Below are positions 17,984 to 56,359 of a stretch of 64,000 bases of DNA, piece after piece. The stretch's first letter is position 1; each line of letters opens with the position of its first letter. The notes under the pieces are model-generated. The model was given only the letters and a program-made list of their open reading frames with translations. It ran no database searches and had not been told where the DNA came from. The position numbers were made by a program, and so were the translations under genes. Source of the DNA: an uncultured Neomegalonema sp. (GTDB lineage Bacteria; Pseudomonadota; Alphaproteobacteria; Rhodobacterales; Rhodobacteraceae); the NCBI GenBank assembly GCA_937922185.1, contig CAKZUT010000070.1, forward strand, positions 2,856 to 66,855, in the 5' to 3' direction.

Positions 17984-20542
17984 TCAGATCTTCGCGATCG
18001 CCCGTACCAGCGTATCGCGGTCATAGGGCTTTTGCACCACCGGCACGCCGGGAAACAGCTCGGTCAGGTCGCGTATCTCGCCATAGCCGGTCGCAAAGAC
18101 GAAGGGTATGCCGTCCCGCGCCAGCCGTGATGCCACCGGCGTCGATGTCTCCATTCCGAGATTCACGTCAAGCAGGGCGAAATCGAAGACCGTCTCCTCC
18201 ATGGCCCGGATCGCCTGTCCGTTGCTCGATGTTGTGACGACCGCTTCCGCGCCCAGATCCACCAGATAGCTTTCGGCATCGAGCGCGATGATCATGTTGT
18301 CCTCCACGATCAGAACCTTGCCCATCTGCACCGCAGGCACCGCCGCAGGGGGCGTTTCGGCCACATGCTCAACCCTGCGATTGGCGAAGCGGTCGATGCT
18401 TTCCGAGGGCAGCAGGAAGGACGCACGTACCCCCGCAGGATCGTAGTCGATTTCGGAAGTGCCGTTCAGTTCATAAGGGATCGAGCGTTCGATGATCGTG
18501 GTGCCGAAGCCCCGCCGGGTGGGTCTGGCCACGGGCGGGCCTCCGGTTTCCTGCCATCCGATTTGCAATTGCCCGTCGCTCTGACGCTCAAGCGTGACCG
18601 TGACCGTCCCTGTCGAGTCGGCCAGCGCCCCGTATTTGGCGGAGTTCGTCAGCAATTCGTGGATCACGAGCGCCACTGTCGAATAGGCATGGGGATGCAG
18701 CATCGCATCCGGCCCCACCATGACCACCCGGTCCCGTTTGGCGCCCAGATACGCGGCGGTCTCGGTCTGGATCAGGTCGTGGAGGGAGGCGGGCGACCAG
18801 TTCTCCCGCGTGATCTGATCATGAGCGCGGGCGAGGGCATGGACGCGGCCCCCGATGACATTGGTGAAGCTGACGATATCGCTCTGGCCATCGGCACTTT
18901 GTGCGATCAGACTCTTGATGAGGTTCAGGATATTGCGGACCCGATGGTTCAGTTCCGCGATCAGCAATTCCTGTTGCTCCTTCGAGCGGATCTGGTCGCG
19001 TATGTTCGCGCTGGCCATACGCAGCACCACTTCCATCAGCGTCACGCGCAGGGACTCGGCGGTCTGCAATTCAATGTCCGTCCAGGGCGCGCTGTGGTGG
19101 CGCAGGATCTGCTGCCATGCCGCGAAGCTCTGGCGCGGAGTGAGCCGTGTGCTGTTCGGCCCCATCGTCATGGGTTTTTCGGGATTTCCGGCCCAGCGGA
19201 CCGATTGGACGACCTCCTGCCGGAAGAGGACGATATAATCCCTCGGTGTCCGCGATACCGGCAGGACCATCGCTCCCGCCGCCCTCTCCGCGAAAGCCTC
19301 CGCTTCCGGGAAGGGCTTTGACAGGCATTCCGTGGCGAACAGGCGGCTTGCCGTCGTGGTATTCAGCGAGGGGACAAGGGCCTCGAATTCCTCGCGGGTC
19401 GGTGTCTGCCCGACCGAGCGGAACTCGCCGTCGATCCACCCGACCGCGCCGTCATGGGGAATGACGGGAGCAGTCGCGTCGATGATCGCCTCGAAATTGT
19501 CACTGACCGAGACGTTCTCGGCAAGCTGTGCCATCAGCCGGTCATGAAGCTTGCGGCCCGCTTCCGTGGCCATCCGTTCGGCATCGCCCTGTTTCTGGTC
19601 GAGCAGAAACGAGAAGAGCTGCGCGAACAGTTCCGCCGCCGTACGGACCGGATAGGACGGCACCTTTGCCGTCTCGTGATGACAGGCGAACAGCCCCCAC
19701 AGCTTTCCCCGCCGCAGGATCGAGATCGACATGGAGGCGCTCACACCCATATTCCGCAGGTATTCCAGATGGATGGGCGAGACGGCACGCACCGAACTCA
19801 TGCTCATGTCGAGGGGCTGGCCTTCCGGGTTGAGCACCGGTTCTATCTCGATGCCCTCGTCATGCACATCCGCGATCACACGCAGCAGGTTCCGCGTATA
19901 GAGTGCCCTCGCCTGCCTCGGAATGTCAGAGGCGGGATAACGCAGCCCGAGATACGGCTCCATTCCCGGCGCACAGGTTTCCGCGATCACCTCGCCGCTG
20001 TCATCGGGGGCAAAGCGATAGACCATCACCCGGTCATAGCCGGTCAGTGCCTTTATCTGCCGCGCGGCGATATCGCAGAGATGCTTTGTGTCCTGTGCGC
20101 CGGTCATCCGTTCGATCATCGGTTTGACATAGCTGGACGGGTCCGCCTGACGGTTCGCCTCGCACCGCTCTCCCTCGATGATGATGGAGCTGCCCGACTG
20201 GTGGACCGCAATATCGAAGGAAGTGTCTCTGTCGGTCAGGCGCAGGTTGAAGAGACGTCCCACCGAATCCGGCCCGCCCAGCATCTGAAGCTGCGAGCGA
20301 AGATCGTGGATCGCATCGGGGGTGAACAGGGTGTTCAACGGCGTTCCGGCCCGGAGAGGCTGGTCCAGTCCGAGAATATCCCCGGCATTCCGCGACACAT
20401 GGTTCACTATCCAGTCGCCGGTAACGGAAATCAGAAAGCCGAAATACTGCACCCGTCCGGGGGTGTGGATCGGCTCACGGTCGCAATTGGTCAGGTCGAC
20501 TTCCTCGCGGGCGAGGCTGTGGTCGATCTCAGGCGAGTTCAT
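17984..20542 (-). CDS. bphP: bacteriophytochrome: PAS-GAF-PHY photosensory core, HWE-type histidine kinase and C-terminal receiver
   Basis: The N-terminal DLTNCDREPIHTPGRVQ contains the biliverdin-binding Cys. A GAF/PHY region follows, then the HWE/HisKA_2 H-box ELNHRVRNILNLIKSL and a receiver (KVLIVEDNMIIALDAE...LLDVNL). Confidence 0.9.
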   Translation of the reverse strand: MNSPEIDHSLAREEVDLTNCDREPIHTPGRVQYFGFLISVTGDWIVNHVSRNAGDILGLDQPLRAGTPLNTLFTPDAIHDLRSQLQMLGGPDSVGRLFNLRLTDRDTSFDIAVHQSGSSIIIEGERCEANRQADPSSYVKPMIERMTGAQDTKHLCDIAARQIKALTGYDRVMVYRFAPDDSGEVIAETCAPGMEPYLGLRYPASDIPRQARALYTRNLLRVIADVHDEGIEIEPVLNPEGQPLDMSMSSVRAVSPIHLEYLRNMGVSASMSISILRRGKLWGLFACHHETAKVPSYPVRTAAELFAQLFSFLLDQKQGDAERMATEAGRKLHDRLMAQLAENVSVSDNFEAIIDATAPVIPHDGAVGWIDGEFRSVGQTPTREEFEALVPSLNTTTASRLFATECLSKPFPEAEAFAERAAGAMVLPVSRTPRDYIVLFRQEVVQSVRWAGNPEKPMTMGPNSTRLTPRQSFAAWQQILRHHSAPWTDIELQTAESLRVTLMEVVLRMASANIRDQIRSKEQQELLIAELNHRVRNILNLIKSLIAQSADGQSDIVSFTNVIGGRVHALARAHDQITRENWSPASLHDLIQTETAAYLGAKRDRVVMVGPDAMLHPHAYSTVALVIHELLTNSAKYGALADSTGTVTVTLERQSDGQLQIGWQETGGPPVARPTRRGFGTTIIERSIPYELNGTSEIDYDPAGVRASFLLPSESIDRFANRRVEHVAETPPAAVPAVQMGKVLIVEDNMIIALDAESYLVDLGAEAVVTTSSNGQAIRAMEETVFDFALLDVNLGMETSTPVASRLARDGIPFVFATGYGEIRDLTELFPGVPVVQKPYDRDTLVRAIAKI

Positions 20543-41022: not shown

Positions 41023-41808
41023 TCATCGGTAATCCCGGATTTTCCGGTGGTCCGGTTCCGTGGCCGATACCAGCCGATAGTGCCGTTCCTCGACAACTTT
41101 CATCGCAAAATCCTCTATGACCAGTTCAAAGAACGCAATCCGGTTCCCGTCCATGAACTGCACCGATATCGCCCTGGCGCGCAGGTCCGCAAACCGTTCC
41201 GCACACCAGTCCAGATCCTGCATTGTCTGCACGACGGATATCTGATCGGTGCCGCCCTTTGCCTGCACCGGAACGATGTAATGGCCTCCGTACCTGTCCA
41301 GCCCGACGTAAAGCTCGTCGATTTCTATCTGCCCGACGCCCGCCACGGTGGTCCGCAGGTGGTTCTGGAGCGAATAGGTCGTCAGGCCGAGAAAGATGTC
41401 GAGCAACCTGTTGTACCGGACGATGGCGAGCAGTGCCTGTTCATCGTCGAGAGCATAATGGCGGATGATCTCCGGCGTGGCATCCGGGATTGAGACCGTT
41501 GCAAGGTCCGGGTTGGGGACGATCCGGCTGAGGCTGAAAAGGATGAACTCGTACTTGCCTTTGCCGACCATCGTGATGAGCCATTCCCTGCCTTGAGGCT
41601 GGGTTGCCAGAATACGGTCGGGCAGAGGTATCCTGAACCGGAAAGAGTAGAGAATGTCGCCGAGATTTTTGGGCAGCGATATGGCCAGTGCTTTCGCGGC
41701 TGTTTCGATATCCTCCCGTTCAAACCCGACCACCGCATCGCCCGGTGTGTAGCGGTCAAAGAATATCTTCTCGATGATCGCGCCATAGCGATTGGGGGGT
41801 CTAGCCAT
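41023..41808 (-). CDS. putative type II restriction endonuclease (partner of the adjacent C5 methyltransferase)
   Basis: 262-aa ORF starting at the ATG at 41806-41808. It overlaps the methyltransferase stop (41801-41803) by 8 nt. No known fold was recognised by eye, so the call is contextual. The 379-aa track ORF is an upstream read-through into the methyltransferase gene. Confidence 0.5.
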   Translation of the reverse strand: MARPPNRYGAIIEKIFFDRYTPGDAVVGFEREDIETAAKALAISLPKNLGDILYSFRFRIPLPDRILATQPQGREWLITMVGKGKYEFILFSLSRIVPNPDLATVSIPDATPEIIRHYALDDEQALLAIVRYNRLLDIFLGLTTYSLQNHLRTTVAGVGQIEIDELYVGLDRYGGHYIVPVQAKGGTDQISVVQTMQDLDWCAERFADLRARAISVQFMDGNRIAFFELVIEDFAMKVVEERHYRLVSATEPDHRKIRDYR

Positions 41809-43150
41809 GGGCAGGCCCGTGTTGTGCATTGAGCCTTTCGCGCTCGATATCGACCTGCTTGCGCTTTTTCGCGCCGCTTTTCCGGTCCCGTTTGCTCGGG
41901 GGAGGGGCGATCCCGAAATGGCGGGATGCTTTCGACAGATCGAAATGCAGCAGTTCGGCATCGCCGGGGGAAAGGGTCCGTTCGGGGCGTGTCGCCCGGA
42001 TGCCCAGAGCGTCGCGGATCGCTCCTGCCACCGCTCTCGCCAGAGGCGGGGGCACCGCATTGCCGATCTGACGCGCTCCATGCCATTTCGTCGCGTTGAA
42101 CCTGAACCAGTCGGGAAAGCCGTGAAGGCGGGCCATTTCCCGCACTGTGATGCAGCGGTCATGGGCGTAATGGATAGGCCGGGGGCTGGTGAATGCCCCT
42201 CTCGCCCCGTCCGTTCCTGCCCTCAGAGTGTTGGATACGCCTTCCATCGGCAATCGAAAGAAGCGGCTGATCGGTTCGACCGTGCCCGGTGCCGTTTCGG
42301 CGAAACGGCGTTTTGATATCCCGGTATGGACCGTACGGGCACTGGACGTGAGGAATTCCGGCTGCCAGTCCCGCACATAGCCGAAATGCCATGCGTCATT
42401 GCCGGTGCATCGCATCTCGGCGGCATAGGCCGAGGCGCGGCCATAGCGTTCCGCCCGGACCATATCGCCGGTCAGCAAGGCGTCGAAACCATCGGCATCG
42501 GGCAGGTCGCCGATGGCCTGCCGGACCGTCGGGCCGTCAGGAAGATGATCGTACTGTCTGCTCTGTCCGGCGATATTGGTCAGAGCGGCGGGGTAGTCCG
42601 GGACGGTTCCGCCTTCTCTCACACCCATCAGGAACAGGCGCTGGCGGTTCTGCGGCACGCCGTAATGGGCGGCGTTCAACACCTGCCACGGCAACCGAAC
42701 CCGGTATCCTGCCTGCTCGAACGCCTCCACAAGCTCATCGAGAACGGCACGATGCTTGCCGACGGTCAATCCTCTGACGTTCTCGAAAACAAAGCTGCCT
42801 GCCTCCAGTTCAGCGACGATTCTGACAAAATCGCGAACCAGCGCATTGCGCGGATCATCCAGAACACGGTGACCGATCAGGGAAAACCCCTGACAGGGTG
42901 CGCCCCCGAAGACGCAATCGATACGGCGATCCCCGATGCCGGCGGCGTCGCGGATATCCGCACCGCTCAGGCCCTCCACGGATCGGGGCAGAATGGTCGT
43001 CTCCGGGAAGTTGAATGCATGTACCGCGCTGTGTACCGGGTCGATTTCCACGGCGGCGGCGATGTCGAAACCCGCCTGCTCAAATCCCAGACTCAGCCCT
43101 CCGGCCCCGGCAAAAAGATCGATCCCTGTGGGTCGCATGAATCCCGCCAT
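41801..43150 (-). CDS. DNA (cytosine-5)-methyltransferase
   Basis: Canonical motif order: I DLFAGAGGLSLG, IV GGAPCQGFS, VI ENVRGL, VIII QNRQRLFL, a variable TRD, and X GNAVPPPLA. Confidence 0.9.
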   Translation of the reverse strand: MAGFMRPTGIDLFAGAGGLSLGFEQAGFDIAAAVEIDPVHSAVHAFNFPETTILPRSVEGLSGADIRDAAGIGDRRIDCVFGGAPCQGFSLIGHRVLDDPRNALVRDFVRIVAELEAGSFVFENVRGLTVGKHRAVLDELVEAFEQAGYRVRLPWQVLNAAHYGVPQNRQRLFLMGVREGGTVPDYPAALTNIAGQSRQYDHLPDGPTVRQAIGDLPDADGFDALLTGDMVRAERYGRASAYAAEMRCTGNDAWHFGYVRDWQPEFLTSSARTVHTGISKRRFAETAPGTVEPISRFFRLPMEGVSNTLRAGTDGARGAFTSPRPIHYAHDRCITVREMARLHGFPDWFRFNATKWHGARQIGNAVPPPLARAVAGAIRDALGIRATRPERTLSPGDAELLHFDLSKASRHFGIAPPPSKRDRKSGAKKRKQVDIERERLNAQHGPAHG

Positions 43151-47666: not shown

Positions 47667-48371
47667 ATGCGCGCCTTGCTGTTTCTGCTGATCTTTCTGA
47701 TTCCGGTATCCGCCCATGCGCGCGGTTGTACGTTGGCGCTGGTTCTGGCAACCGACACGTCGTCCTCCATCGACGAGGATGAATACGCGGCCCAGATGCA
47801 GGGGCTGGCCGGGGCTTTCCGCACCGATGTGCTGCGCGAGGCGCTGCTGGGGACGCGGGGCATCCATGTCGAGGCAACCGTCGTCCACTGGAGCGGATAC
47901 AGGCATCAGGAACAGGTCGTGCCATGGACCGCGCTGACCGGGGCCGCGATCATCGACGATTTCGCGGACCGCATCGCCGCCGTGCCCCGCGCCGAGGACG
48001 GTCAGGCGACGGCGCTGGGCAAGGGGCTGGAATTCTCGGCAAGGCTGCTGCACGGGCGCGACTGTGACCGGCACATCATCGACCTGACCGGAGACGGGGT
48101 GAATAATTTCGGGATCGGGCCGCATTACTTCGCCGAGCGGGGCGATTTCGACGGCATCACCATCAACGGCCTTGCCATCCGGGGGGCCTTGCCCGACCCG
48201 GAGCCGTATTTCCGCGAGCACGTCGCGCGCGGGCCGGGGGCCTTCGTGATGGTGGCGGGTGGCTACGGGGAATATGCGGAGGCGATTCTGGAAAAACTGC
48301 TGCGCGAGATTTCTCCGCGCTACACCCTGCGCGTCACGCCTTCCCCGCGTCTTCCGGCGGCAGGGCGGTAA
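47667..48371 (+). CDS. DUF1194 (vWA-like) secreted protein
   Basis: Signal peptide MRALLFLLIFLIPVSAHA, MIDAS-like LATDTSSSID, DLTGDGVNN. Its 3' end overlaps the convergent STAND gene by 38 nt. Confidence 0.75.
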   Translation: MRALLFLLIFLIPVSAHARGCTLALVLATDTSSSIDEDEYAAQMQGLAGAFRTDVLREALLGTRGIHVEATVVHWSGYRHQEQVVPWTALTGAAIIDDFADRIAAVPRAEDGQATALGKGLEFSARLLHGRDCDRHIIDLTGDGVNNFGIGPHYFAERGDFDGITINGLAIRGALPDPEPYFREHVARGPGAFVMVAGGYGEYAEAILEKLLREISPRYTLRVTPSPRLPAAGR

Positions 48372-51318
48372 AGAACCAGCCGGTGATGAGATCATGCATC
48401 GCCGATACCGTCAGCGCGCGCGGGTCCGTGCGCCCCAGCAACGCCGCCAGCCGGTCGATCCGCCCCAGTTCATCGGCGATTTCCACCACCACCGTCGCCC
48501 GTTGCGGATCAAGGGGGCGCTGCGCGTCACAGTGCAATTCACGCGGCCAGAGCGGTGTCTCGCGCGCGATGTCATGCAGCACGGCATGGACTGCTTTCGA
48601 TGATGCCGTCCGCAGGCAGGTCACGAGCGGTGCATGAAGATCGGGGTTCGCGCCCCGCATGACCGGCGCGAAGGCCGGGGCAATGCCCGACAGGTCCACC
48701 GTGCTTTTCGCGATGGCCTGCCCGGTGCGGCCTATGGCGCGATGCAGGTCGGCCAGCGATATCGCCTCCCCCCGCAGGCCCGCGATCCCGTCGAAGACCG
48801 CGCGCTCCGCCGATCCCTGCGCCGGGGTCGCCATGCCGTCCCGCCACCGATACGCCGCCGGGCGCAGCGCGGGGATCTGCCGCCCCGCGATGATATCCGA
48901 CCGTCGCAGGCGCAGGCGATCGACCGCATGATCGAAGGCATCGACCTGCATGTCGTATTCCTCGATGACCCGGCCCGACAGAAAGGCCCGCCAGTCATAG
49001 ACCCCGTTGATCTGCGCCAATGCTCCGGCCAGAGCCGCTGCCGCCGCTTCCCCCTCCACCGCCGCCTTCGACAGCACCAGTTCCCAGACGGGCGTATGGA
49101 ACAGCCCCCCCAGCATCGCGCGCCGGAACCGCTCCACGGCCAGCCCGGAGGGATCATCTCCGAGCAGGGCGAGATAGCGGTCGGCAAGCTGCACGACGCG
49201 GGGGAAATCGGCCCCGGCGAAGCGGGCGGCGATCATCCGCTCCATCCGGGCGATGGAATCCGGCACATCGCCGGTCATCGCCCTTCTGCGCCCGGTCATC
49301 CGCTCCGCATTCAGGATCGCCGCCTCGGCCCTTTCGCGCGCGGCGCCGGACAGTGCGGCCCGCTCCGCCGCGTCCATCGGCATATCCACTCTGGCCTTGA
49401 CCGGTGCCCGCCAGTCCACAGGCAGGATTTCGAGATCATCACCGAGTTCCTGCCGGATATCCTGCGCCGCTCCGTGTGACAGATCGGGAGGGGTCGCCCC
49501 GGTCCCCGCAAGGGCCTCGTAATAATACGCATGAGCCATGCGCGTGGCATCGGAAAGCGCCTGCCAGCGGCCCCGCGCCGCGTCATCCCCGTGCGGCCCT
49601 TCCCGGTACCACGCCGCCGCCGCCATGCATGTCGCGCGGGCGGGCGCGGCCATTTCCGGCACGATCAGCCGCCGCAGTTCCGGTCGGGGCCGCAGCGCGA
49701 AGCCGCCCTCATCGGGTGTCATCAGCCAGGTTTCGCGCGCCAGCGCATCGTACAGCGCCCCGGCCTCCGCCGGACCGATCTTCCGCCCCGGCCCCGCCGG
49801 TAGCGACCGGATCAGATCGGGGGTCAGGGTTCGCAGGATCACCGCGCCCTCAACCAGCGCCCGGATATCCGGCTCCCTGATCCGGCCCGGAATACACCGG
49901 TACAGCACCATCCGGGCGGTTTCGACCGTCGCGGCTTCCCCGGCCTCCAGATCCCGGATCAGCGGCTCCAGCGCCTCCGGGCGGCTATGGGCAAAGCGTA
50001 CCCCCATCAGCAGGGCCATCGGATGCCCGCACAGGGCCTTGGTCAGCCGCCGCCGCCTCGCCGTCCCGTTCAGGTGCCGTGCGCCGGTCAGGGTGGCCAG
50101 GCGCGCATCCTCATCGGCCAGCAGCGCCATGCCGTCCTGTTCGGCAAGGCCCGCCAGATGGACCCCCCGCTCCGTCGGCCCGAAGACCTGTTCCATCCCC
50201 GACGGCTGCGCTCCGCCCCCCGATACCACGCTCCGCAGGCCGGGCAGGCGCGCACGCAACATCGCTTCCAGCGCGAAGATCATGTCCACGGTGCCGCCCC
50301 CGCGCCGGTCCACCGCCTCGAAACTGTCGAACAACACGGCAATTGGCCGCGCCCGCAGCGGGGCGGCCCAGTCCTGCGACAGCGCATCGAGGGTCACGGT
50401 ATCGAGCCAGCCGATCTGGGACTCGAAACTGCGTTCCCGCGCCGCCACGCCCGACACGGGCAAGTCCCGGCGCAAGGCCCGCAACCCGTCATCCACGGCC
50501 TTGACCATGGCGGGATCATCCAGCTTGTGTTTGATCCCGGTCGCGCACTGGCGCAAAAATTCTCCCAGGATTTCGACCGGCTTGCCGGACATGAGCTGTC
50601 GCCGGTCGAAATCGATCACCACGGTCAGGGGCGAATCCGAGCGCGGCTGCCAGTAGCCGAACATCCGCGCCAGCAAGGCCGATTTCCCCGCTCCCGCGAT
50701 CCCGGAGAGACAGACGGGCCGCGCATCCCCGTCCTGTCCCCGCAGAAACCGCGAGAGACGGGCGCGTTCGGCGTCATAGCCCCGGTGCCGGTGCGGCAGG
50801 ACAAGGGTCAGGTCGCGGCGGCGCTGAAGTTCCTGAATCCGCCGTTTCGCCGCCGTTTCCAGCACATCGAGCGCCGCCCCGTCGAGCGGTGCGACATGGC
50901 GGGCGAACTGCGCCGCCTCCAGCATCGCGCCGACATCGCGCATCTCCGCCAGCAGGGCCGCGTCATCCTCGCCATGGCCCGATATATCCACGCGAACCGC
51001 TTCTTCCGACAACAGCCGCCGCAGGGCGATGCCGAACCTGTCTTCCGGCCACAGAGGCGGTGCCTGCGCCAGCAGCCGGTCGATACCTGCCCGACTGACC
51101 AGCGCCTGAAACTGCCGCACCCGCGCATCGGGGGTCAGCACCCAGCCATAGCCGGGCGTCCCTTCCTCCAGCACCTCCGCCACATGCCCGGACAGCTCGC
51201 GCCACAGCGCCTGCCGCTGCGCCGTATCCAGCCCCAGCGCATCGGCCATGGCGGCGGGGGTGAACGCCCCCGACACCGCGCCCAGTTCCAGCGCCGAGCG
51301 GCAGAGCGGCGAGGTCAT
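48334..51318 (-). CDS. large STAND-like P-loop NTPase (994 aa) with an N-terminal domain of about 170 aa and a helical C-terminal region of about 570 aa
   Basis: Walker A LSGIAGAGKSALLARM (50680-50703), preceded by an FLRG-type helix. Candidate Walker B IAVLFDSFE. A long Ala/Leu/Arg-rich helical C-terminus. No signal peptide or TM. ATGA start/stop overlap with the upstream gene at 51315-51318. Confidence 0.75.
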   Translation of the reverse strand: MTSPLCRSALELGAVSGAFTPAAMADALGLDTAQRQALWRELSGHVAEVLEEGTPGYGWVLTPDARVRQFQALVSRAGIDRLLAQAPPLWPEDRFGIALRRLLSEEAVRVDISGHGEDDAALLAEMRDVGAMLEAAQFARHVAPLDGAALDVLETAAKRRIQELQRRRDLTLVLPHRHRGYDAERARLSRFLRGQDGDARPVCLSGIAGAGKSALLARMFGYWQPRSDSPLTVVIDFDRRQLMSGKPVEILGEFLRQCATGIKHKLDDPAMVKAVDDGLRALRRDLPVSGVAARERSFESQIGWLDTVTLDALSQDWAAPLRARPIAVLFDSFEAVDRRGGGTVDMIFALEAMLRARLPGLRSVVSGGGAQPSGMEQVFGPTERGVHLAGLAEQDGMALLADEDARLATLTGARHLNGTARRRRLTKALCGHPMALLMGVRFAHSRPEALEPLIRDLEAGEAATVETARMVLYRCIPGRIREPDIRALVEGAVILRTLTPDLIRSLPAGPGRKIGPAEAGALYDALARETWLMTPDEGGFALRPRPELRRLIVPEMAAPARATCMAAAAWYREGPHGDDAARGRWQALSDATRMAHAYYYEALAGTGATPPDLSHGAAQDIRQELGDDLEILPVDWRAPVKARVDMPMDAAERAALSGAARERAEAAILNAERMTGRRRAMTGDVPDSIARMERMIAARFAGADFPRVVQLADRYLALLGDDPSGLAVERFRRAMLGGLFHTPVWELVLSKAAVEGEAAAAALAGALAQINGVYDWRAFLSGRVIEEYDMQVDAFDHAVDRLRLRRSDIIAGRQIPALRPAAYRWRDGMATPAQGSAERAVFDGIAGLRGEAISLADLHRAIGRTGQAIAKSTVDLSGIAPAFAPVMRGANPDLHAPLVTCLRTASSKAVHAVLHDIARETPLWPRELHCDAQRPLDPQRATVVVEIADELGRIDRLAALLGRTDPRALTVSAMHDLITGWFFTALPPEDAGKA

Positions 51319-53405
51319 GGCCCGTCCTCCGCCACCGCCCCGCCGAAATAGGCATCCGCCACCCCGCTCACATGGTCGGAAACGAACCGCGACAGGGTTT
51401 CCAGCGGCACATCATCCCCGGCATGGGAGGCGAGGATGCCGCCCAGAAACTGGAGGCTCTCGTCAGATAACGGTTTTTCGGTATTGCGCGCGCCCCGCTC
51501 CATCAGCCATTCCACGAACCGGCCCTTGAGGTCGGCGAAATCCTCGCCTCCGATCACCGAATGGATCACCGTTTCGGGGGGCAGGCCGCTGATCGACACC
51601 GCGCGGGGCAATCCGATCAGTACCACGCGGACATCGGGCATCTGCTGAATCTGATTATAGATCGTGGCGAGAAATTCCCGCCCCGAGGCGTTCGACAGGT
51701 CGCTGCGGTCGAGGTCATCCAGCACGATCCACACGATCTGATCGCTCAGGCGCTCACGGATTGCCTGCGCCACGGCCCCCACCAGTTGCCGCACATAGGC
51801 GGGGGTCGTTGTCTCCGGGGCTGCGGGCAGGGTCGGCACCAGATCCTCGGCGAAGCTGCCCAGCGTATTGGCCGCCATGCTGTAGGCATCCACTGCCATA
51901 TCGCTGGCGCGAAAGAGAATATGGTGATGCTCCGGCCCCCGGAACAGCGCGCGCAGGATATCGACCGAGAAGGACTTTCCCGGTCGCCGCAGCGCCGTGG
52001 CATCCGGGTCCACCTCGATCCGCATGATCTGTTTCTCGCCGTCGAACAGGGTTTTCAGATCATCGAGAAACCCCTTGCGCCCGAAGACCGGATGCCGCCC
52101 GTCAAGGCATCCCCGAAAGGGCCGCAGCACCCCGGCTTCCGCGATATCGGCCAGCTTTCCGGCCCTGTCGAGCTGTCGATGGATGGCGGTCAGGGTGATC
52201 GCGACATTGACCGCCTTGGTGCGCTCGCCGGGATTGGCGGGCGGGCGTTTCGCCTTCAGCCCCATGTAATGCAGGCCCGCCACCTCGCCCGTCTCGTCGA
52301 GCAGCAGCCCGCCGGAGGAGCCTTGCACGGTGCTGGCATCATGGAAAAAGCGATGCGGCCTGCGCGCGCCCGCCTGGAGCTGTTCGGTGCCGCGCGTCAG
52401 GGTCTGACCGTTTTCGGACGGATGATGCACGGCCCAGACGGCTCCGGGCAGCGCCCGCCTTTTCGGCAGGGTGTACCATCCCCGTTGCAGCCCCGGCACC
52501 CCGTCGAGCCGCAGGACCGCGAAATCGAGCCGGTCCGCCACCGAATCGAGCCAGTCCTTCCGCAGGTTGAAATCGTCCCACCAGTAATCCGCCGCGTCGG
52601 GGGGTTCGAGCGGCGCATCCTCGCCCCGCGCGATCAGCCAGTTCTCGCTCACATCGAAGACCGAACTGTCGGCATCCTCCAGCCCCGTCGTCTCCGAGAA
52701 ATCGAACTGTACCCACAGCCGCCCCTTGCGCGGGAGCGGATGGGGCACATGCGAGACGACATGCCAGTTGGTCAGCACCGTCCCCGGCCCGATCAGAAAT
52801 CCCGTGCCGCTGACCGGCTTACCGGCGTCGTCGATGGAGACGATCCGGCATAATCGCCGCCGCGCTTTCAGGATCGCGGGCAGTAAATGGCCGGGATCGG
52901 TCCAGACCTCGTTATCCGAGGTCAGAGCATGGCGCGAGGCCCGGTGCAGGATCGCACGCGGGACATCGACGGGCGCGTCGAGCGCGGCCCCCATGGCCCG
53001 CCCGATCCCGACCCGCGCCTCTTCCGCCGCCCCGGCATCGGCTCCCGTCACGAGGCCCGCCGCCAGCGCGGCACTGAAACAGGCGACGATCTCCAGCGGA
53101 TCACCCAGCGCCGCAAGCGCCAGCCGCATCGCCTCGCCGCTGTCACCGGGCCGGGGGGCGGGGTCGCATTCCGCGCAGGCATCGGCCCCCAGCACGACCG
53201 CATGGATGAAGTTCTCCGGCCCGCCTTCGGGTCGGCGCTCGGTCAGCCAGCTATCGTAGAACTGCCGGAACCGCGCGCGCGAGGGCGCGATCCCCCCTGT
53301 CGGGGCGCGCAGGCGATCATAGAGAGCGGCAACCTGCGTCAATCGTCCGCCCCTTCGTTCAGCAGCCCGGTACGGAAGGCCCCGTCGGCCTTCGCCGCCA
53401 CGCAT
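51315..53405 (-). CDS. chymotrypsin-fold serine protease domain fused to a C-terminal P-loop NTPase-like domain (696 aa)
   Basis: Protease triad candidates: GTGFLIGPGTVLTNWHVV (His 52761-52763), LDFAVLRL (Asp 52524-52526), GSSGGLLLD (Ser 52314-52316). This is followed by PVFGRKGFLDDLKTLF, an AxxxxGKS P-loop (ALRRPGKS, 51972-51995) and hhhhDD (VWIVLDDLD). The start is uncertain: ATG at 53405 (67-nt overlap with the upstream gene) or TTG at 53340-53342, which overlaps the upstream stop. Confidence 0.75.
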   Translation of the reverse strand: MRGGEGRRGLPYRAAERRGGRLTQVAALYDRLRAPTGGIAPSRARFRQFYDSWLTERRPEGGPENFIHAVVLGADACAECDPAPRPGDSGEAMRLALAALGDPLEIVACFSAALAAGLVTGADAGAAEEARVGIGRAMGAALDAPVDVPRAILHRASRHALTSDNEVWTDPGHLLPAILKARRRLCRIVSIDDAGKPVSGTGFLIGPGTVLTNWHVVSHVPHPLPRKGRLWVQFDFSETTGLEDADSSVFDVSENWLIARGEDAPLEPPDAADYWWDDFNLRKDWLDSVADRLDFAVLRLDGVPGLQRGWYTLPKRRALPGAVWAVHHPSENGQTLTRGTEQLQAGARRPHRFFHDASTVQGSSGGLLLDETGEVAGLHYMGLKAKRPPANPGERTKAVNVAITLTAIHRQLDRAGKLADIAEAGVLRPFRGCLDGRHPVFGRKGFLDDLKTLFDGEKQIMRIEVDPDATALRRPGKSFSVDILRALFRGPEHHHILFRASDMAVDAYSMAANTLGSFAEDLVPTLPAAPETTTPAYVRQLVGAVAQAIRERLSDQIVWIVLDDLDRSDLSNASGREFLATIYNQIQQMPDVRVVLIGLPRAVSISGLPPETVIHSVIGGEDFADLKGRFVEWLMERGARNTEKPLSDESLQFLGGILASHAGDDVPLETLSRFVSDHVSGVADAYFGGAVAEDGP

Positions 53406-56140
53406 TCGAGATCATGGGCGAAGTTCTGCGACAGGCTCTCGCCCCCGAAATGCAGCCCGCAGAATCGCGCCTTGCCATGCAGCGATACGATGGCCGACCC
53501 GGACGAGCCGCCCATGGTCGTGGCATCATGGCTGAAACTCCAGCCTGCCGGATCGCCCTCCAGCGTACCGGGGCGCTGCATCACGAAGCCGGGACTCATG
53601 TACTGCACCCCGTATTCGTCGCCGTAGAGTTCGCCGATCCGATCCCAGAAGGCGAGAAACTCCTCCGCGTCATCCTGTGCGTCGGGTCCGGCATTGCGGC
53701 CCGGCGGCTGCGCCGGATAGCCCATGACCAACAGCTTTTGCACATCCTCATCGGTGGTCGAGACCCGGCCCGTATCGATAGGTTCGGGCGGATCGTCGCC
53801 CTCCGCGTTCTGCCCGATTTCGAGGATCGCCATATCCAGCTTGCCCAGATGCACCGCGCGCCCGATGCGATGGCGCCCCGCCGTCGCGATGCCGGTGACG
53901 GGAAAGCGCATCGTGTCGTCGGTGCCGTCGGGATCGAAGACGACGGAGGCCGTGCGCCGCATCCTGAAGGCCTGTTCCCCCTCGGCGGCGGGCAGTCCCA
54001 CGGCAAAGGTATCGAGGACATGGCGGTTGGTCATCACCCGGTTCCTGCCGATCACGAAGCCGGTCCCCGCCTGCATCCGGCCCCGTCCGGCGACGTCGAT
54101 ATCAATGCGTCCCGTGCGTTGGGCCAGTGCCTGCCATTTCCGGCGGGTCGGCACCAGATCACCGCGCCAGTCGCCGATATCCTCGTCCAGCACCTCGCTG
54201 CCGTCCCGCCGGATGCGGATCGCCGGACGCCCGGTCAGGCGCACCAGCGCCTCCAGCACGGCCCGCGCCTCGGTCGCCGCGTTGCTGTCGGAATCGTCCG
54301 GCGTGTCGCCGCGTATAATGGCATCCATGACCGGCGCGATCCGCTCCAGCGCCTGCGTCTGGACCCCGGCATCGGTCAGACCCGGCGCGCGCGCCGCCCG
54401 GCGTTTCAGCGCGGCCTCGGCGGTGTCGATGATTGTCCGCGCCCCTTCCTGCCGCACCCGTGTCAGGGCCTGCGCCGCGCTCTCGACACCTGCGCTTTCG
54501 AGGCCCGATCCGATACTGACCGACAGGCGTTTCATCGCCGGGGCCAGCGCCATCGGCTCCGTTGCGCGTCCCACCACCAAGGGCGCGGCGGCCAGCATGA
54601 TCTCCGGGTCGGGCGCAGGTGCGATCAGGGCGGCCAGACCCGGCGAGGGCATGGCGGGCATGGCCGTCTCGATGACCCGCGCGCCCGGTTGTCGGCGCAT
54701 TTCCCGATCCGCCGCGATGAAACTCGCCTCCGCCTCATAGGGGCCGCCCGCCGGATCGGTGCCGAGGATCGCGCGGATCGGGTCATCGCCCGAGGCGGCG
54801 GGCGGGGCGGGAATATCTCGCAGCGGCAGGTCGAGCAGGGCCTCCGCATCCACGATTCCGGTGCCCGTCGCCTGCGAATCCCAGTCCGCCGGTGTCCGTG
54901 CCGTTGCGCGCAGGGCCGACCGGAACAGCGCCTGCACCGGCACGCGGCGCGACCGGGCCTCGGCCTCGACCGCCGCCGTCCCGAACCGTTCCAGCCACAG
55001 GGCCGCGACCCCCGCCGTGATCGCGGCGGCAAAGGATGTGCCCTGTCCCCGGTCATCGATCGTATCGGTTGACGGATCATCCCCCGTGCGCCGCGCCACA
55101 TGAACGTTCTCGCCCGGTGCCGAGACATCCACCGCCGCTCCCCGGCATGACCCGCGCCAGATTCGTCCGTCCGAATCCACCGCCGCCACGGCGATCACAT
55201 TCGCGTCCCAGGCCGGGTAGGTGACTATCCTGACGCAGTTCCCCGCCGCCGCGAGAACGATCATATCCGCCGCCACTGCCCGCGCGATGGCCCGTCGCAG
55301 GGCGCGTCCGGCAATTGGCCCGCCCAGAGACATGGTTACGATGCGGCATCCGTCATGGCGGGCATGATCGACCGCCCGCGCCACCGCCACGCCCGAACCG
55401 ATCACCACCGAGTTCACTGCCCGGATCGGCACCACGGTCGCGCCGGGGGCCGAGCCACAGAGCGTAGAGGTATTCCGGCTGGCAATCACCGAGGCCGTCG
55501 CGGTGCCATGTCCCGGCGAGCGCATGTCCGGGGATAGCGGGTCGGTCGGGTCGGCCTTTCCCGCCATGAAATCGAACCCCGCCGCGCGGTCGATTACCCC
55601 GTCGAGTTCGCGGTGATCGGCCACCCCGGTATCGGGATGCCCGATGCGGATTCCCGTGCCCGACACCCCGTGGGCCGCGCGCGCCCGGTCGGCGCGGATC
55701 AGCTTGATCGCCCAGTGCGGATCATCCCGTGAGGGGGCGTCCGACAGGCAGAACAGGCCCGCAATGGCCCCCACGCTCTCCGGCGCGCCCCGGATGCTGA
55801 CGGCATCGACATAGAGCGGGCCGGTCTCCGGCGTTACCGACACCAGACCGAGGGCCACGCGCAGGTCTTCGGCCTCATGGAACAGGTAATCCGGCGGCTG
55901 TTCTATGGGGACGCCTGCGAATAGCAGGATTGCCAGCACGGGGTCATCCCCGGAATAGGGCAGCAGGTCGAACCCGTCCGCGCCCAGCAACGCCGCGATC
56001 CGTTTCCGTTCGGCATCGAGATCGGGGGGCGTGGCATATTCGAGGGTGAAACCGAGCCGGTCATCGGGGTAGCCGAGGGTATCGCTGCGCCGCGAAACGC
56101 CCGCCGCCGCCTTGAATAAATCGAGCAAAACAACCCCCAT
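53339..56140 (-). CDS. dual serine protease: N-terminal domain of about 150 aa, subtilisin-type S8 peptidase, helical linker of about 240 aa, and a C-terminal chymotrypsin-fold protease
   Basis: S8 triad: IGHPDTGV (Asp 55631-55633), GHGTATAS (His 55508-55510), AAAGN oxyanion Asn, GTSFAAA (Ser 55034-55036). Second protease: GTGFVIGRNRVMTNRHVLD (His 54020-54022), LDMAILEI, GGSSGSAIV (Ser 53501-53503). No signal peptide recognised. Start is the ATG at 56140; the track uses a GTG at 56158. Confidence 0.8.
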   Translation of the reverse strand: MGVVLLDLFKAAAGVSRRSDTLGYPDDRLGFTLEYATPPDLDAERKRIAALLGADGFDLLPYSGDDPVLAILLFAGVPIEQPPDYLFHEAEDLRVALGLVSVTPETGPLYVDAVSIRGAPESVGAIAGLFCLSDAPSRDDPHWAIKLIRADRARAAHGVSGTGIRIGHPDTGVADHRELDGVIDRAAGFDFMAGKADPTDPLSPDMRSPGHGTATASVIASRNTSTLCGSAPGATVVPIRAVNSVVIGSGVAVARAVDHARHDGCRIVTMSLGGPIAGRALRRAIARAVAADMIVLAAAGNCVRIVTYPAWDANVIAVAAVDSDGRIWRGSCRGAAVDVSAPGENVHVARRTGDDPSTDTIDDRGQGTSFAAAITAGVAALWLERFGTAAVEAEARSRRVPVQALFRSALRATARTPADWDSQATGTGIVDAEALLDLPLRDIPAPPAASGDDPIRAILGTDPAGGPYEAEASFIAADREMRRQPGARVIETAMPAMPSPGLAALIAPAPDPEIMLAAAPLVVGRATEPMALAPAMKRLSVSIGSGLESAGVESAAQALTRVRQEGARTIIDTAEAALKRRAARAPGLTDAGVQTQALERIAPVMDAIIRGDTPDDSDSNAATEARAVLEALVRLTGRPAIRIRRDGSEVLDEDIGDWRGDLVPTRRKWQALAQRTGRIDIDVAGRGRMQAGTGFVIGRNRVMTNRHVLDTFAVGLPAAEGEQAFRMRRTASVVFDPDGTDDTMRFPVTGIATAGRHRIGRAVHLGKLDMAILEIGQNAEGDDPPEPIDTGRVSTTDEDVQKLLVMGYPAQPPGRNAGPDAQDDAEEFLAFWDRIGELYGDEYGVQYMSPGFVMQRPGTLEGDPAGWSFSHDATTMGGSSGSAIVSLHGKARFCGLHFGGESLSQNFAHDLECVAAKADGAFRTGLLNEGADD

Positions 56141-56359
56141 AATACCTGTTGATAACACAATTCAACCGGTTTACCGTACATGAGAATTACTGGGGCAACA
56201 ACAACCACATCTTGGAAAAAGCGGTATTTTGTTCATGACGAACAATCCGTTAGATGTCTTGTTCCGTATGCTCCGTATAAGTGGCTTTCGGATCGGATGA
56301 GGGGGCATTCCGACCTGAAATAGATGTATTCTTTATTGACCCGTTAAAGGAGTATACCC
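56141..56359. promoter_or_regulatory. AT-rich divergent intergenic region between the protease/NTPase operon and the tyrosinase operon
   Basis: It is visibly much more AT-rich than the flanking DNA (runs such as ATAATACCTGTTGATAACACAATTC and GTATTCTTTATTGACCC). AAAGGAG lies 7 nt before the tyrosinase ATG. Specific -35/-10 boxes were not assigned. Confidence 0.45.

Follow-up and report, generated by a model that had tools for sequence, protein, structure and literature searches.

The locus described here raises the question of what an ATPase-like domain does when it is covalently attached to a serine protease and encoded next to a second, larger ATPase. The window, a stretch of 64,000 nucleotides from an uncultured Neomegalonema sp. 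of the Alphaproteobacteria (contig CAKZUT010000070.1), contains three consecutive genes, designated here as A, B and C. Gene B encodes a trypsin-like protease with such a domain at its C terminus, and C encodes a STAND NTPase. A reading made from the DNA letters alone (referred to as the sequence-only reading) had proposed that B and C form a two-tier nucleotide switch. Our analysis, which rests in part on analogy, indicates that B likely serves as the protease-adaptor in a cytoplasmic module of three genes, an NLR-type cell-death or defence system of the CARD-NLR/LypABC kind in a subtilase-type variant, and that its C-terminal domain is a divergent AAA+/STAND-type module. The genes and the end of the operon are positioned as follows.

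53339–56158, complementary strand: gene A, an S8 subtilase joined to a trypsin-like protease, with a likely start at the ATG at 56140
51315–53342, complementary strand: gene B, the protease-adaptor, 675 aa, with a TTG start and a stop codon at 51315–51317
48334–51318, complementary strand: gene C, a STAND/NLR-like NTPase of 994 aa, with weak Pfam matches to AAA_16, NACHT and NPHP3_N
48302–48320, complementary strand: a terminator-like hairpin and T-run directly after the stop codon of C, the likely end of the operon

The open reading frame (ORF) at 51315–53405 on the complementary strand is real, and its translation agrees with that given before, including PVFGRKGFLDDLKTLF, ALRRPGKS and VWIVLDDLD. 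The start of B had been left ambiguous between an ATG at 53405 and a TTG. Both candidates exist; the ATG gives the 67-nt overlap with A that had been calculated, and the TTG (53342–53340) overlaps the TGA stop of A (53341–53339). The TTG is the better start because the closest homologue, which shares 99% identity, has 675 aa and the homologues of 72–78% identity have their first residue at this position in the alignment. The 21 additional residues encoded from the ATG occur in no homologue of B, and this codon is probably not the start. AAGGGG lies 7 nt upstream of the TTG, from which residues of B are numbered here; the earlier numbering, counted from the ATG, is higher by 21. The TGA stop of B and the ATG of C overlap as ATGA, and B is translationally coupled both to A upstream and to C downstream. 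Alignments of A with its homologues begin at about residue 8 of the GTG-initiated ORF, and the probable start of A is therefore the ATG at 56140. A gap of approximately 200 bp, which is AT-rich, precedes A.

A search of 5.8 billion proteins returned 62 full-length homologues of B (34–99% identity, 650–726 aa), and residue conservation was judged on an alignment of 42 homologues (34–78% identity). The regions of B are listed below, with structural assignments taken from AlphaFold2 (AF2) models and their predicted local distance difference test (pLDDT) scores.

52983–53342, complementary strand: aa 1–120, a six-helix bundle (pLDDT 82.8)
52893–52982, complementary strand: aa 121–150, a low-confidence linker, disordered at aa 129–141
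52161–52892, complementary strand: aa 151–394, a trypsin-like serine protease (Pfam Trypsin_2, E 4.8e-14)
52755–52772, 52512–52532 and 52308–52322, complementary strand: the segments that hold the triad residues H194, D273 and S343, respectively
51318–52097, complementary strand: aa 416–675, a divergent AAA+/STAND-type module with its core at aa 416–605 and a three-helix lid at aa 606–675
51972–51995, complementary strand: a variant Walker A motif, ALRRPGKS, aa 450–457, which closes an 11-residue loop after β1
51708–51734, complementary strand: the Walker B motif, VWIVLDDLD, aa 537–545, with W538, D542, D543 and L544 invariant

The catalytic triad previously given as H215, D294 and S364 corresponds to H194, D273 and S343, all invariant in the 42 aligned homologues, and the protease is active-looking as far as its residues tell. 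NCBIfam profiles gave generic protease matches only. In the model of the N-terminal bundle, pLDDT exceeded 90 across aa 1–100, and the six helices make it a candidate for the Death/CARD fold. Pfam was blank for this domain, and Foldseek found no match to the model in PDB or BFVD below E 0.5. Likewise, searches of PDB sequences for the Azospirillum CARD structure returned nothing, either with a profile of the B N-terminus or with an Azospirillum homologue of B as query.

The C-terminal half of B was modelled as aa 395–675 from a 29-sequence alignment, with a pLDDT of 87.7 and a predicted TM-score (pTM) of 0.84. The model runs from a helix carrying FGR (PVFGR, aa 418–422) through β1, the 11-residue loop, α1 starting at K456, β2, a helical insert, β3 leading to the DD, α3, β4 and β5 to the three-helix lid. 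A Foldseek search against PDB gave 69 matches at E ≤ 1e-3, and the 50 listed were all AAA+ ATPases; the top match was archaeal Orc1/Cdc6 (2qby_A, E 2.3e-5), and origin recognition complex (ORC) subunits, MalT (8bob_C), Hda, TnsC, Msp1 and FtsH were among the further matches listed. The TM-scores were moderate, only about 0.45, and we therefore regard the module as a divergent member of the AAA+ group. Thus, both structure prediction and structure comparison revealed a P-loop NTPase fold in the C-terminal half of B, and a protease is indeed fused to an NTPase-type domain directly upstream of the gene for a larger STAND NTPase. In sequence profiles, Pfam matches of the module to AAA_22 and AAA_16 stayed sub-threshold (AAA_22, 16.6–18.6 bits against a cut-off of 27), AAA_16 recurred sub-threshold in 14 of the 29 family members scanned singly (best E 1.3e-4), and a profile of the domain searched against PDB sequences gave one spurious match to a short stretch of a Lon fragment.

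The module shares with Orc1/Cdc6 AAA+ proteins and with STAND domains (MalT and Apaf-1) an α/β core followed by a lid, an FGR-type helix before the P-loop and the hhhhDD pattern, whereas it differs from them in its inserted P-loop without the first Gly, in showing, by sequence and secondary structure, no conserved candidate for a sensor-1 residue or Arg finger and in having no winged helix or repeats. In the AF2 model, B ends after the three-helix lid, with neither a winged helix nor sensor repeats, and the module is therefore STAND-like and not a complete STAND. A G-x-x-x-P-L stretch in the lid is a candidate counterpart of the STAND GxP motif of NB-ARC domains. Alignment of the module with the NTPase domain of C by hhalign had a probability below 1% and was out of register at the Walker A motif; the two are therefore not recent paralogues.

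The genes on either side of B encode proteins with the following parts.

54902–55660, complementary strand: Peptidase_S8 domain of A, aa 167–419 (Pfam 7.6e-32)
53471–54067, complementary strand: trypsin-like domain of A, aa 698–896 (Pfam Trypsin_2 1.3e-11)
50680–50703, complementary strand: Walker A motif of C, GIAGAGKS
50317–50343, complementary strand: Walker B motif of C, IAVLFDSFE
50011–50028, complementary strand: GxP-type motif of C, GHPMAL

Both catalytic sets of A are intact on motif inspection, and the homologues of its trypsin half include trypsin-NucA (Endonuclease_NS) fusions. In C, the motifs GxxGxGKS, DSFE and GHP[LM]AL are conserved in 25 homologues. About 520 residues follow the NTPase domain of C, and the C-terminal third of the protein is its least conserved part (0.42), variable as expected for a sensor.

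The gene order was compared in 26 related loci (numbered with the prefix L). Each of the 25 loci with an upstream flank has A upstream of B, and C lies downstream of B in 24, the exceptions being L021, whose contig is too short, and the distant L024, which has no detectable C. The hosts comprise Rhodobacterales (Ruegeria, Pseudorhodobacter and Roseovarius-like), Azospirillum, Xanthobacteraceae, Phenylobacterium, Sphingomonadales and the gammaproteobacterium Ferrimonas. A, B and C thus travel together across Alpha- and Gammaproteobacteria. Plasmid copies occur on the megaplasmid of Ruegeria pomeroyi DSS-3 and on plasmids of Rhizobium and Sinorhizobium. The R. pomeroyi copy (L027, NC_006569.1, 216248–224325; genes SPO_RS20860 to SPO_RS20850) is an A-B-C operon. 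Its B was recovered by tblastn in two pieces; the annotation gives only a shortened protein of 486 aa, overlapped on the antisense strand by a "hypothetical protein", which suggests a frameshift or a mis-annotation. In L024 and in L028 (Sinorhizobium meliloti plasmid pMl1, 3830–9664), distant members of the B family with about 28% identity retain the upstream S8 gene and have no detectable C; in L028, ORFs of 188 and 136 aa follow B in place of C. Clustering of the flanking ORFs from 27 loci revealed no recurrent accessory gene besides the tyrosinase and PpoB2 genes described below; a cluster shared by three loci was considered as a further accessory and proved to be a generic ABC ATPase.

Two relatives bridge this operon to nuclease-bearing ones. 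In L031 (GCA_042682145.1, 3221–11782), an S8-plus-trypsin gene is followed by a natural B-C fusion, P0203 (1602 aa), with alignments both to B (E 2e-34) and to C (E 4e-26), and then by a stand-alone Endonuclease_NS gene. A plasmid of Polaromonas naphthalenivorans CJ2 encodes a 601-aa B-family protease, a 984-aa ATP-binding protein and a DNA/RNA non-specific (NucA-type) endonuclease; the protease matches B aa 158–592 at E 5e-37 and has the P-loop GAAKTGRS. NucA/Endonuclease_NS is present in the relatives L030 and L031, and in relatives the endonuclease is the third or fourth gene, added or substituted. Judged from these alignments, the L031 fusion locus ties subtilase-type and nuclease-type operons into one family. 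A serine recombinase gene lies near the L031 operon. In L029 (Rhizobium phaseoli plasmid pRetR611c), an operon for S8, trypsin-like and AAA ATPase proteins lies beside genes for dCTP deaminase, a Fic protein and an integrase, a setting that is defence-island-like, unlike that of the window.

The closest described counterpart is LypABC of Caulobacter crescentus. LypA consists of a CARD-like bundle, a trypsin domain and, at its C terminus, an ATPase domain without conserved Walker residues; LypB is an Orc1-like/NLR-like ATPase with TPR-like repeats; and LypC is a trypsin fused to an endonuclease (Nat Microbiol 2026, PMC13236601). The N-terminal bundle of LypA contacts LypB's N-terminal domain and recruits the protease to the NLR-like protein, and function is abolished by mutation of either the predicted ATP pocket or the catalytic Ser of LypA, so that its divergent pocket is needed but is not known to act as an independent switch (PMC13236601). 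The window operon matches this arrangement gene by gene. Like LypA, B combines an N-terminal helical bundle, a trypsin-like protease and a divergent C-terminal ATPase domain; like LypB, C is an NLR-like ATPase with a further C-terminal region (repeats in LypB, variable in C); and like LypC, A joins a second domain to its trypsin-like protease. Both systems are three-gene sets in an alphaproteobacterium, outside any defence island. The differences are that A has an S8 subtilase where LypC has an endonuclease, that the order A-B-C corresponds by equivalence to lypC-lypA-lypB, that B is longer (675 aa against about 600 aa), that B keeps GK[ST] and DD whereas LypA reportedly has no conserved Walker residues, and that a tyrosinase gene adjoins the window operon. 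Structural homologues of LypA are found among proteins of Roseovarius, Jannaschia, Salipiger, Sulfitobacter and Rhizobium.

Two broader descriptions include related systems. The CARD-NLR anti-phage systems defined by Wein et al. (PMC10312443) include three-gene operons in which a CARD-protease is encoded together with a repeat-bearing ATPase and an often trypsin-fused effector. The type II gasdermin operon of Lysobacter and the three-gene operons of Pedobacter and Azospirillum described there share with the window a STAND/NLR-like ATPase, trypsin-like proteases and, putatively in the window, a protease-dependent effector; what fills the effector position varies and is often fused to trypsin. 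The trigger of the Lysobacter system is phage RIIB (PMC10312443). An ATPase-like domain within the protease, as present in B, is not discussed in that work (PMC10312443). Kaur et al. (2020) described the NucA-trypsin "System 3", in which a STAND NTPase is fused to a Death-like and a trypsin domain and in which S8-trypsin fusions occur (PMC7159879). The window operon shares with it a mostly alphaproteobacterial distribution, multiple trypsin paralogues, S8 and trypsin in one polypeptide and a proposed proteolytic cascade, whereas the defining NucA is absent from the window operon (Pfam detected no Endonuclease_NS in A, B or C) and present in L030 and L031. PADLOC assigned no named system to the window and gave only weak matches to its "trypsin-like", "subtilase" and "nacht" models. 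Taken together, the features of CARD-NLR/LypABC systems found here are an adjacent NLR-like STAND ATPase, a protease of LypA-type architecture and, in A, a second gene with a trypsin-like protease. The fusion of protease and ATPase is an architecture already described in the literature, which the sequence-only reading had not recognised, and B is probably the protease subunit of a system of known kind.

Several observations weigh against this assignment. The likeness of B to LypA and to the Lysobacter and Azospirillum proteases would rest on architecture, operon context and the Polaromonas and L031 bridges, and not on direct alignment. Foldseek matched the N-terminal bundle of B to none of the Death/CARD folds in PDB (best E 1.7), and hhalign detected no profile similarity between this bundle and the N-terminal regions of C or A; nor did it detect an adaptor domain shared among the N-termini of A, B and C and the middle region of A, whereas the positive control, trypsin against trypsin, reached 98%. 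The 611-position "trypsin-like" model of PADLOC matched B weakly (E 7e-4), and it matched distant members of the B family over the N-terminal and trypsin parts only. The window contains no gasdermin, phospholipase or nuclease effector, and the locus lies outside any defence island, as lypABC likewise does (PMC13236601). Finally, window C has VVSGGG (aa 364–369, approximately 50212–50229, complementary strand) where all 24 other aligned homologues have VVSGR, whose Arg is sensor-1-like, and a 3-residue deletion lies just beyond it. The sensor C may thus be altered or impaired in this lineage, in which P0069, a relative of C with 99% identity, has SGGG too. A compensated frameshift behind SGGG was considered, and the alternative reading frames gave it no support.

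If the module works as LypABC and the gasdermin system of Lysobacter do, C would detect a trigger through its variable C-terminal region and oligomerise on ATP. B would be recruited to C through its N-terminal bundle, as LypA is to LypB, and possibly through the AAA+-like module as well. Clustering of the B protease domains would switch the proteases on, and activated B would then cleave or activate A. The proteases of A could harm the cell directly or activate a zymogen effector, which may be the lid-blocked tyrosinase where one is present. The module of B would serve in this scheme as an ATP-binding assembly or competence element and not as a second autonomous switch.

In the nucleotide-binding site of B, the distance from the Walker A Lys to the first Asp of Walker B is 86 residues, in agreement with the spacing of about 85 residues noted before. 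G455, K456, W538, D542, D543, L544, G554, R572, L575, G577 and L578 are invariant in the 42 homologues, and the motifs are therefore under selection and do not reflect chance. The sequence-only reading had also held that the first Gly of Walker A is replaced by Ala. This was not borne out: the Gly is displaced by a 6-residue insertion between β1 and GK, as seen in the pairwise alignment of VRGGPDC------GKSFS from a canonical relative with IEVDPDATALRRPGKSFS from window B. B accordingly does not match the canonical GxxxxGK[ST]; it keeps RPGK[ST] and lacks the first Gly, and its VWIVLDD conforms to the Walker B pattern hhhhD[DE]. In the clade of window B, GK[ST] and DD are invariant, and conservation of the nucleotide-binding core equals that of the protease (0.58 for both). 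According to sequence and secondary structure, an invariant Gly-Leu comes after β4 (VRVVLI), where neither a polar residue nor an Arg is conserved for sensor-1, and the AF2 secondary structure has no helix between β4 and β5 for an Arg finger; these two features hint more strongly than the altered Walker A at weak or absent hydrolysis. In the hhalign alignment, C shows SGR at the place corresponding to the end of β4 of B. A TTxPAY-type motif (aa 511–516, 51795–51812, complementary strand), in which T511 and A515 are invariant, was observed in the loop before helix α2, and a related [DE]T..xA[WY] form is retained in distant members of the family.

An exhaustive profile search with the module through 1.84 billion representatives gave 353 proteins at E ≤ 1e-3. 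Nearly all of them have 600–700 aa with the module at the C terminus, and the three-domain plan is therefore the family norm. Walker states were scored on 194 family representatives, with the following Walker A results.

Canonical GxxxxGK[ST]: 46 of 194
GK[ST] behind an inserted loop: 99 of 194
Lys replaced by Arg: 25 of 194
Lys replaced by another residue: 23 of 194
K[ST] kept, preceding Gly lost: 1 of 194

Textbook P-loops (GDPKTGKS, GVKDSGKT and GGPDCGKS) occur in distant members, the Walker Lys is gone in 48 representatives, and 165 of the 194 have DD or DE at Walker B. The P-loop erodes repeatedly while the module stays constrained, which argues for a binding or assembly role over a motor role. 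In the clade of window B, the residues kept suggest that the pocket probably still binds nucleotide and that turnover is unlikely, in a family that seems to tolerate loss of the site. Most likely, the module of B uses bound ATP-Mg as a cofactor for assembly or competence and turns over little of it or none, and would not be an independent motor.

The erosion of both Walker motifs across the family would also suit a module that is nucleotide-free and offers only a surface for docking or oligomerisation, for instance one that packs against the nucleotide-binding ring of C or inserts into it. The natural B-C fusion fits such a scaffold, as does the failure to detect an adaptor domain shared by the N-termini of B and C. 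We nevertheless regard it as unlikely: the invariance of K456, S/T457, D542 and D543 in the window clade is hard to explain without a ligand, the module and the NTPase of C are not detectably paralogous, and the contact between LypA and LypB maps to the N-terminal bundle and not to the ATPase domains (PMC13236601). The two-tier switch lies at the opposite extreme, with the NTPase of B as a competent, independent checkpoint that must hydrolyse nucleoside triphosphate in series with C before the protease fires. The invariant GK[ST] and DD, the equal conservation of core and protease and the loss of function in LypA pocket mutants (PMC13236601) are compatible with this idea. It is made improbable, however, by the 6-residue insertion in the P-loop, by the absence of a conserved candidate for sensor-1 or the Arg finger, by the frequent loss of the Walker Lys and by the lack of a winged-helix or sensor domain in B that could couple a signal. 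Moreover, LypA works though it is reported to be without conserved Walker A and B residues (PMC13236601).

Divergently upstream of A, the window contains two further genes, which bear on the possible effector of the system.

56360–57787, forward strand: a latent-type tyrosinase, 475 aa, with the C-terminal lid DUF7868 (Pfam Tyrosinase 1e-34, DUF7868 3e-27)
57797–58609, forward strand: a PpoB2-type copper chaperone (Pfam PpoB2 1.9e-16), co-transcribed with the tyrosinase gene

The tyrosinase is homologous to HcTyr1 (PDB 8B74, E 4e-75), and its F391 aligns with the placeholder Phe397 of that enzyme. Phe397 belongs to the C-terminal lid that closes off the active site of HcTyr1, an enzyme that becomes approximately 10-fold more active once the lid is lost (PMC11609597). 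The lid and its placeholder Phe are conserved, and the tyrosinase has no signal peptide. Seven related loci, from Rhodobacterales and Ferrimonas, have the gene beside A-B-C in one of two arrangements, with PpoB2 alongside in 6 of the 7. Six of the seven are genome loci, in which the tyrosinase gene is divergent and upstream (L002 from Ferrimonas, L005, L006, L010 and L016) or downstream and co-directional (L015). The seventh is a close metagenomic relative, L032. In the tree of B, the tyrosinase-bearing loci are interspersed with loci that lack the pair. Among 80 metagenomic tyrosinase loci, PpoB2 accompanies the tyrosinase in most. Stand-alone S8 subtilase genes lie directly upstream of, and co-directional with, tyrosinase-lid genes on two unrelated metagenomic contigs (L070, 7818–9383, and L078, 7728–9554); in L078, the next gene upstream encodes a 1112-aa protein with an M78 peptidase, a UvrD helicase and a PD-(D/E)XK nuclease.

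These arrangements allow for the possibility that a C sensor with a B-then-A protease relay has taken the lid-blocked cytoplasmic tyrosinase as its effector. The DUF7868 lid, including Phe391, would be cut off, and phenol oxidation with quinone or melanin chemistry would be unleashed in the cell. Protease-activated zymogen effectors are part of the current picture of such systems, into which this link would fit (bioRxiv 10.1101/2025.11.14.688446). The arthropod prophenoloxidase cascade and other protease-activated latent tyrosinases (HcTyr1 and the fungal and plant polyphenol oxidases) offer a likeness in that serine proteases stand here beside a lid-blocked tyrosinase; this is an analogy only, and it differs from the prophenoloxidase cascade in that the link is confined to part of the B family. 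We hold this effector role to be tentative and somewhat doubtful, given that most A-B-C loci have no tyrosinase gene and that A-B-C is found in only 1 of the 80 metagenomic tyrosinase-lid loci, the other 79 being without it. An alignment of the region between A and the tyrosinase gene revealed no operator-like motif conserved beyond the closest relative. In the searchable literature, we found no mention of a link between tyrosinase and A-B-C and nothing relevant on a CARD-NLR with a subtilase or on DUF7868. The gene distribution suggests that the tyrosinase link is clade-limited; it is unproven.

The same neighbourhood could be read without immunity, with A, B and C as a maturation machine that processes a lid-bearing pro-tyrosinase for melanin formation on a physiological signal such as stress or development. 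The recurrence of the tyrosinase gene beside the operon in two arrangements, the conserved lid with its placeholder Phe and the housekeeping character of the surrounding genes are in keeping with this. It is nonetheless improbable, because the tyrosinase gene is missing from 5 loci of the same clade with adequate flank on both sides and from all 6 adequately flanked loci of the sister clade, because nearly all metagenomic tyrosinase-lid loci lack A-B-C and because relatives have nucleases instead, on plasmids beside integrases and dCTP deaminase. Least probable of all is a role in lysis for gene transfer agents (GTAs), which are common in Rhodobacterales, an order that contributes many B homologues (from Ruegeria, including the R. 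pomeroyi DSS-3 megaplasmid, and from Roseovarius-like genomes): although LypABC is required for GTA-mediated lysis in Caulobacter (PMC13236601), no GTA genes were seen in the examined parts of the window, and the system is also present in Ferrimonas, in Azospirillum and on Rhizobium plasmids.

In the sampled parts of the window, the neighbours of the operon are housekeeping genes (PEPCK, RNase R, CobT, oligopeptidase F, BatA/DUF4159 and a Wzz-type tyrosine kinase). The gene at 17984–20542 on the complementary strand encodes a bacteriophytochrome that includes an HWE histidine kinase and a receiver domain, and that at 41801–43150 on the same strand, approximately 5 kb past the operon, a C-5 cytosine DNA methylase (Pfam E 1.2e-62). 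The ORF of 737 aa at 56333–58546 (complementary strand), which has a high content of Gly, Arg and Pro, was rejected as a gene; it shadows the tyrosinase and PpoB2 genes in antisense, in DNA of 65–70% GC. Similar antisense shadow ORFs lie over A, B and C.

Systems of the CARD-NLR/LypABC type are bacterial relatives of inflammasome and apoptosome logic, and the family of B provides material for studying them. The natural P-loop variants identified here can be used to test a binding role against a motor role of the module, and the presence of A-B-C on the megaplasmid of the model bacterium R. pomeroyi DSS-3 makes genetics feasible. The association with the tyrosinase is the only potentially new biology of this system. 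If functional, it would add a new effector class to CARD-NLR-type systems and give bacteria a parallel to the prophenoloxidase cascade of arthropods and to insect melanisation.

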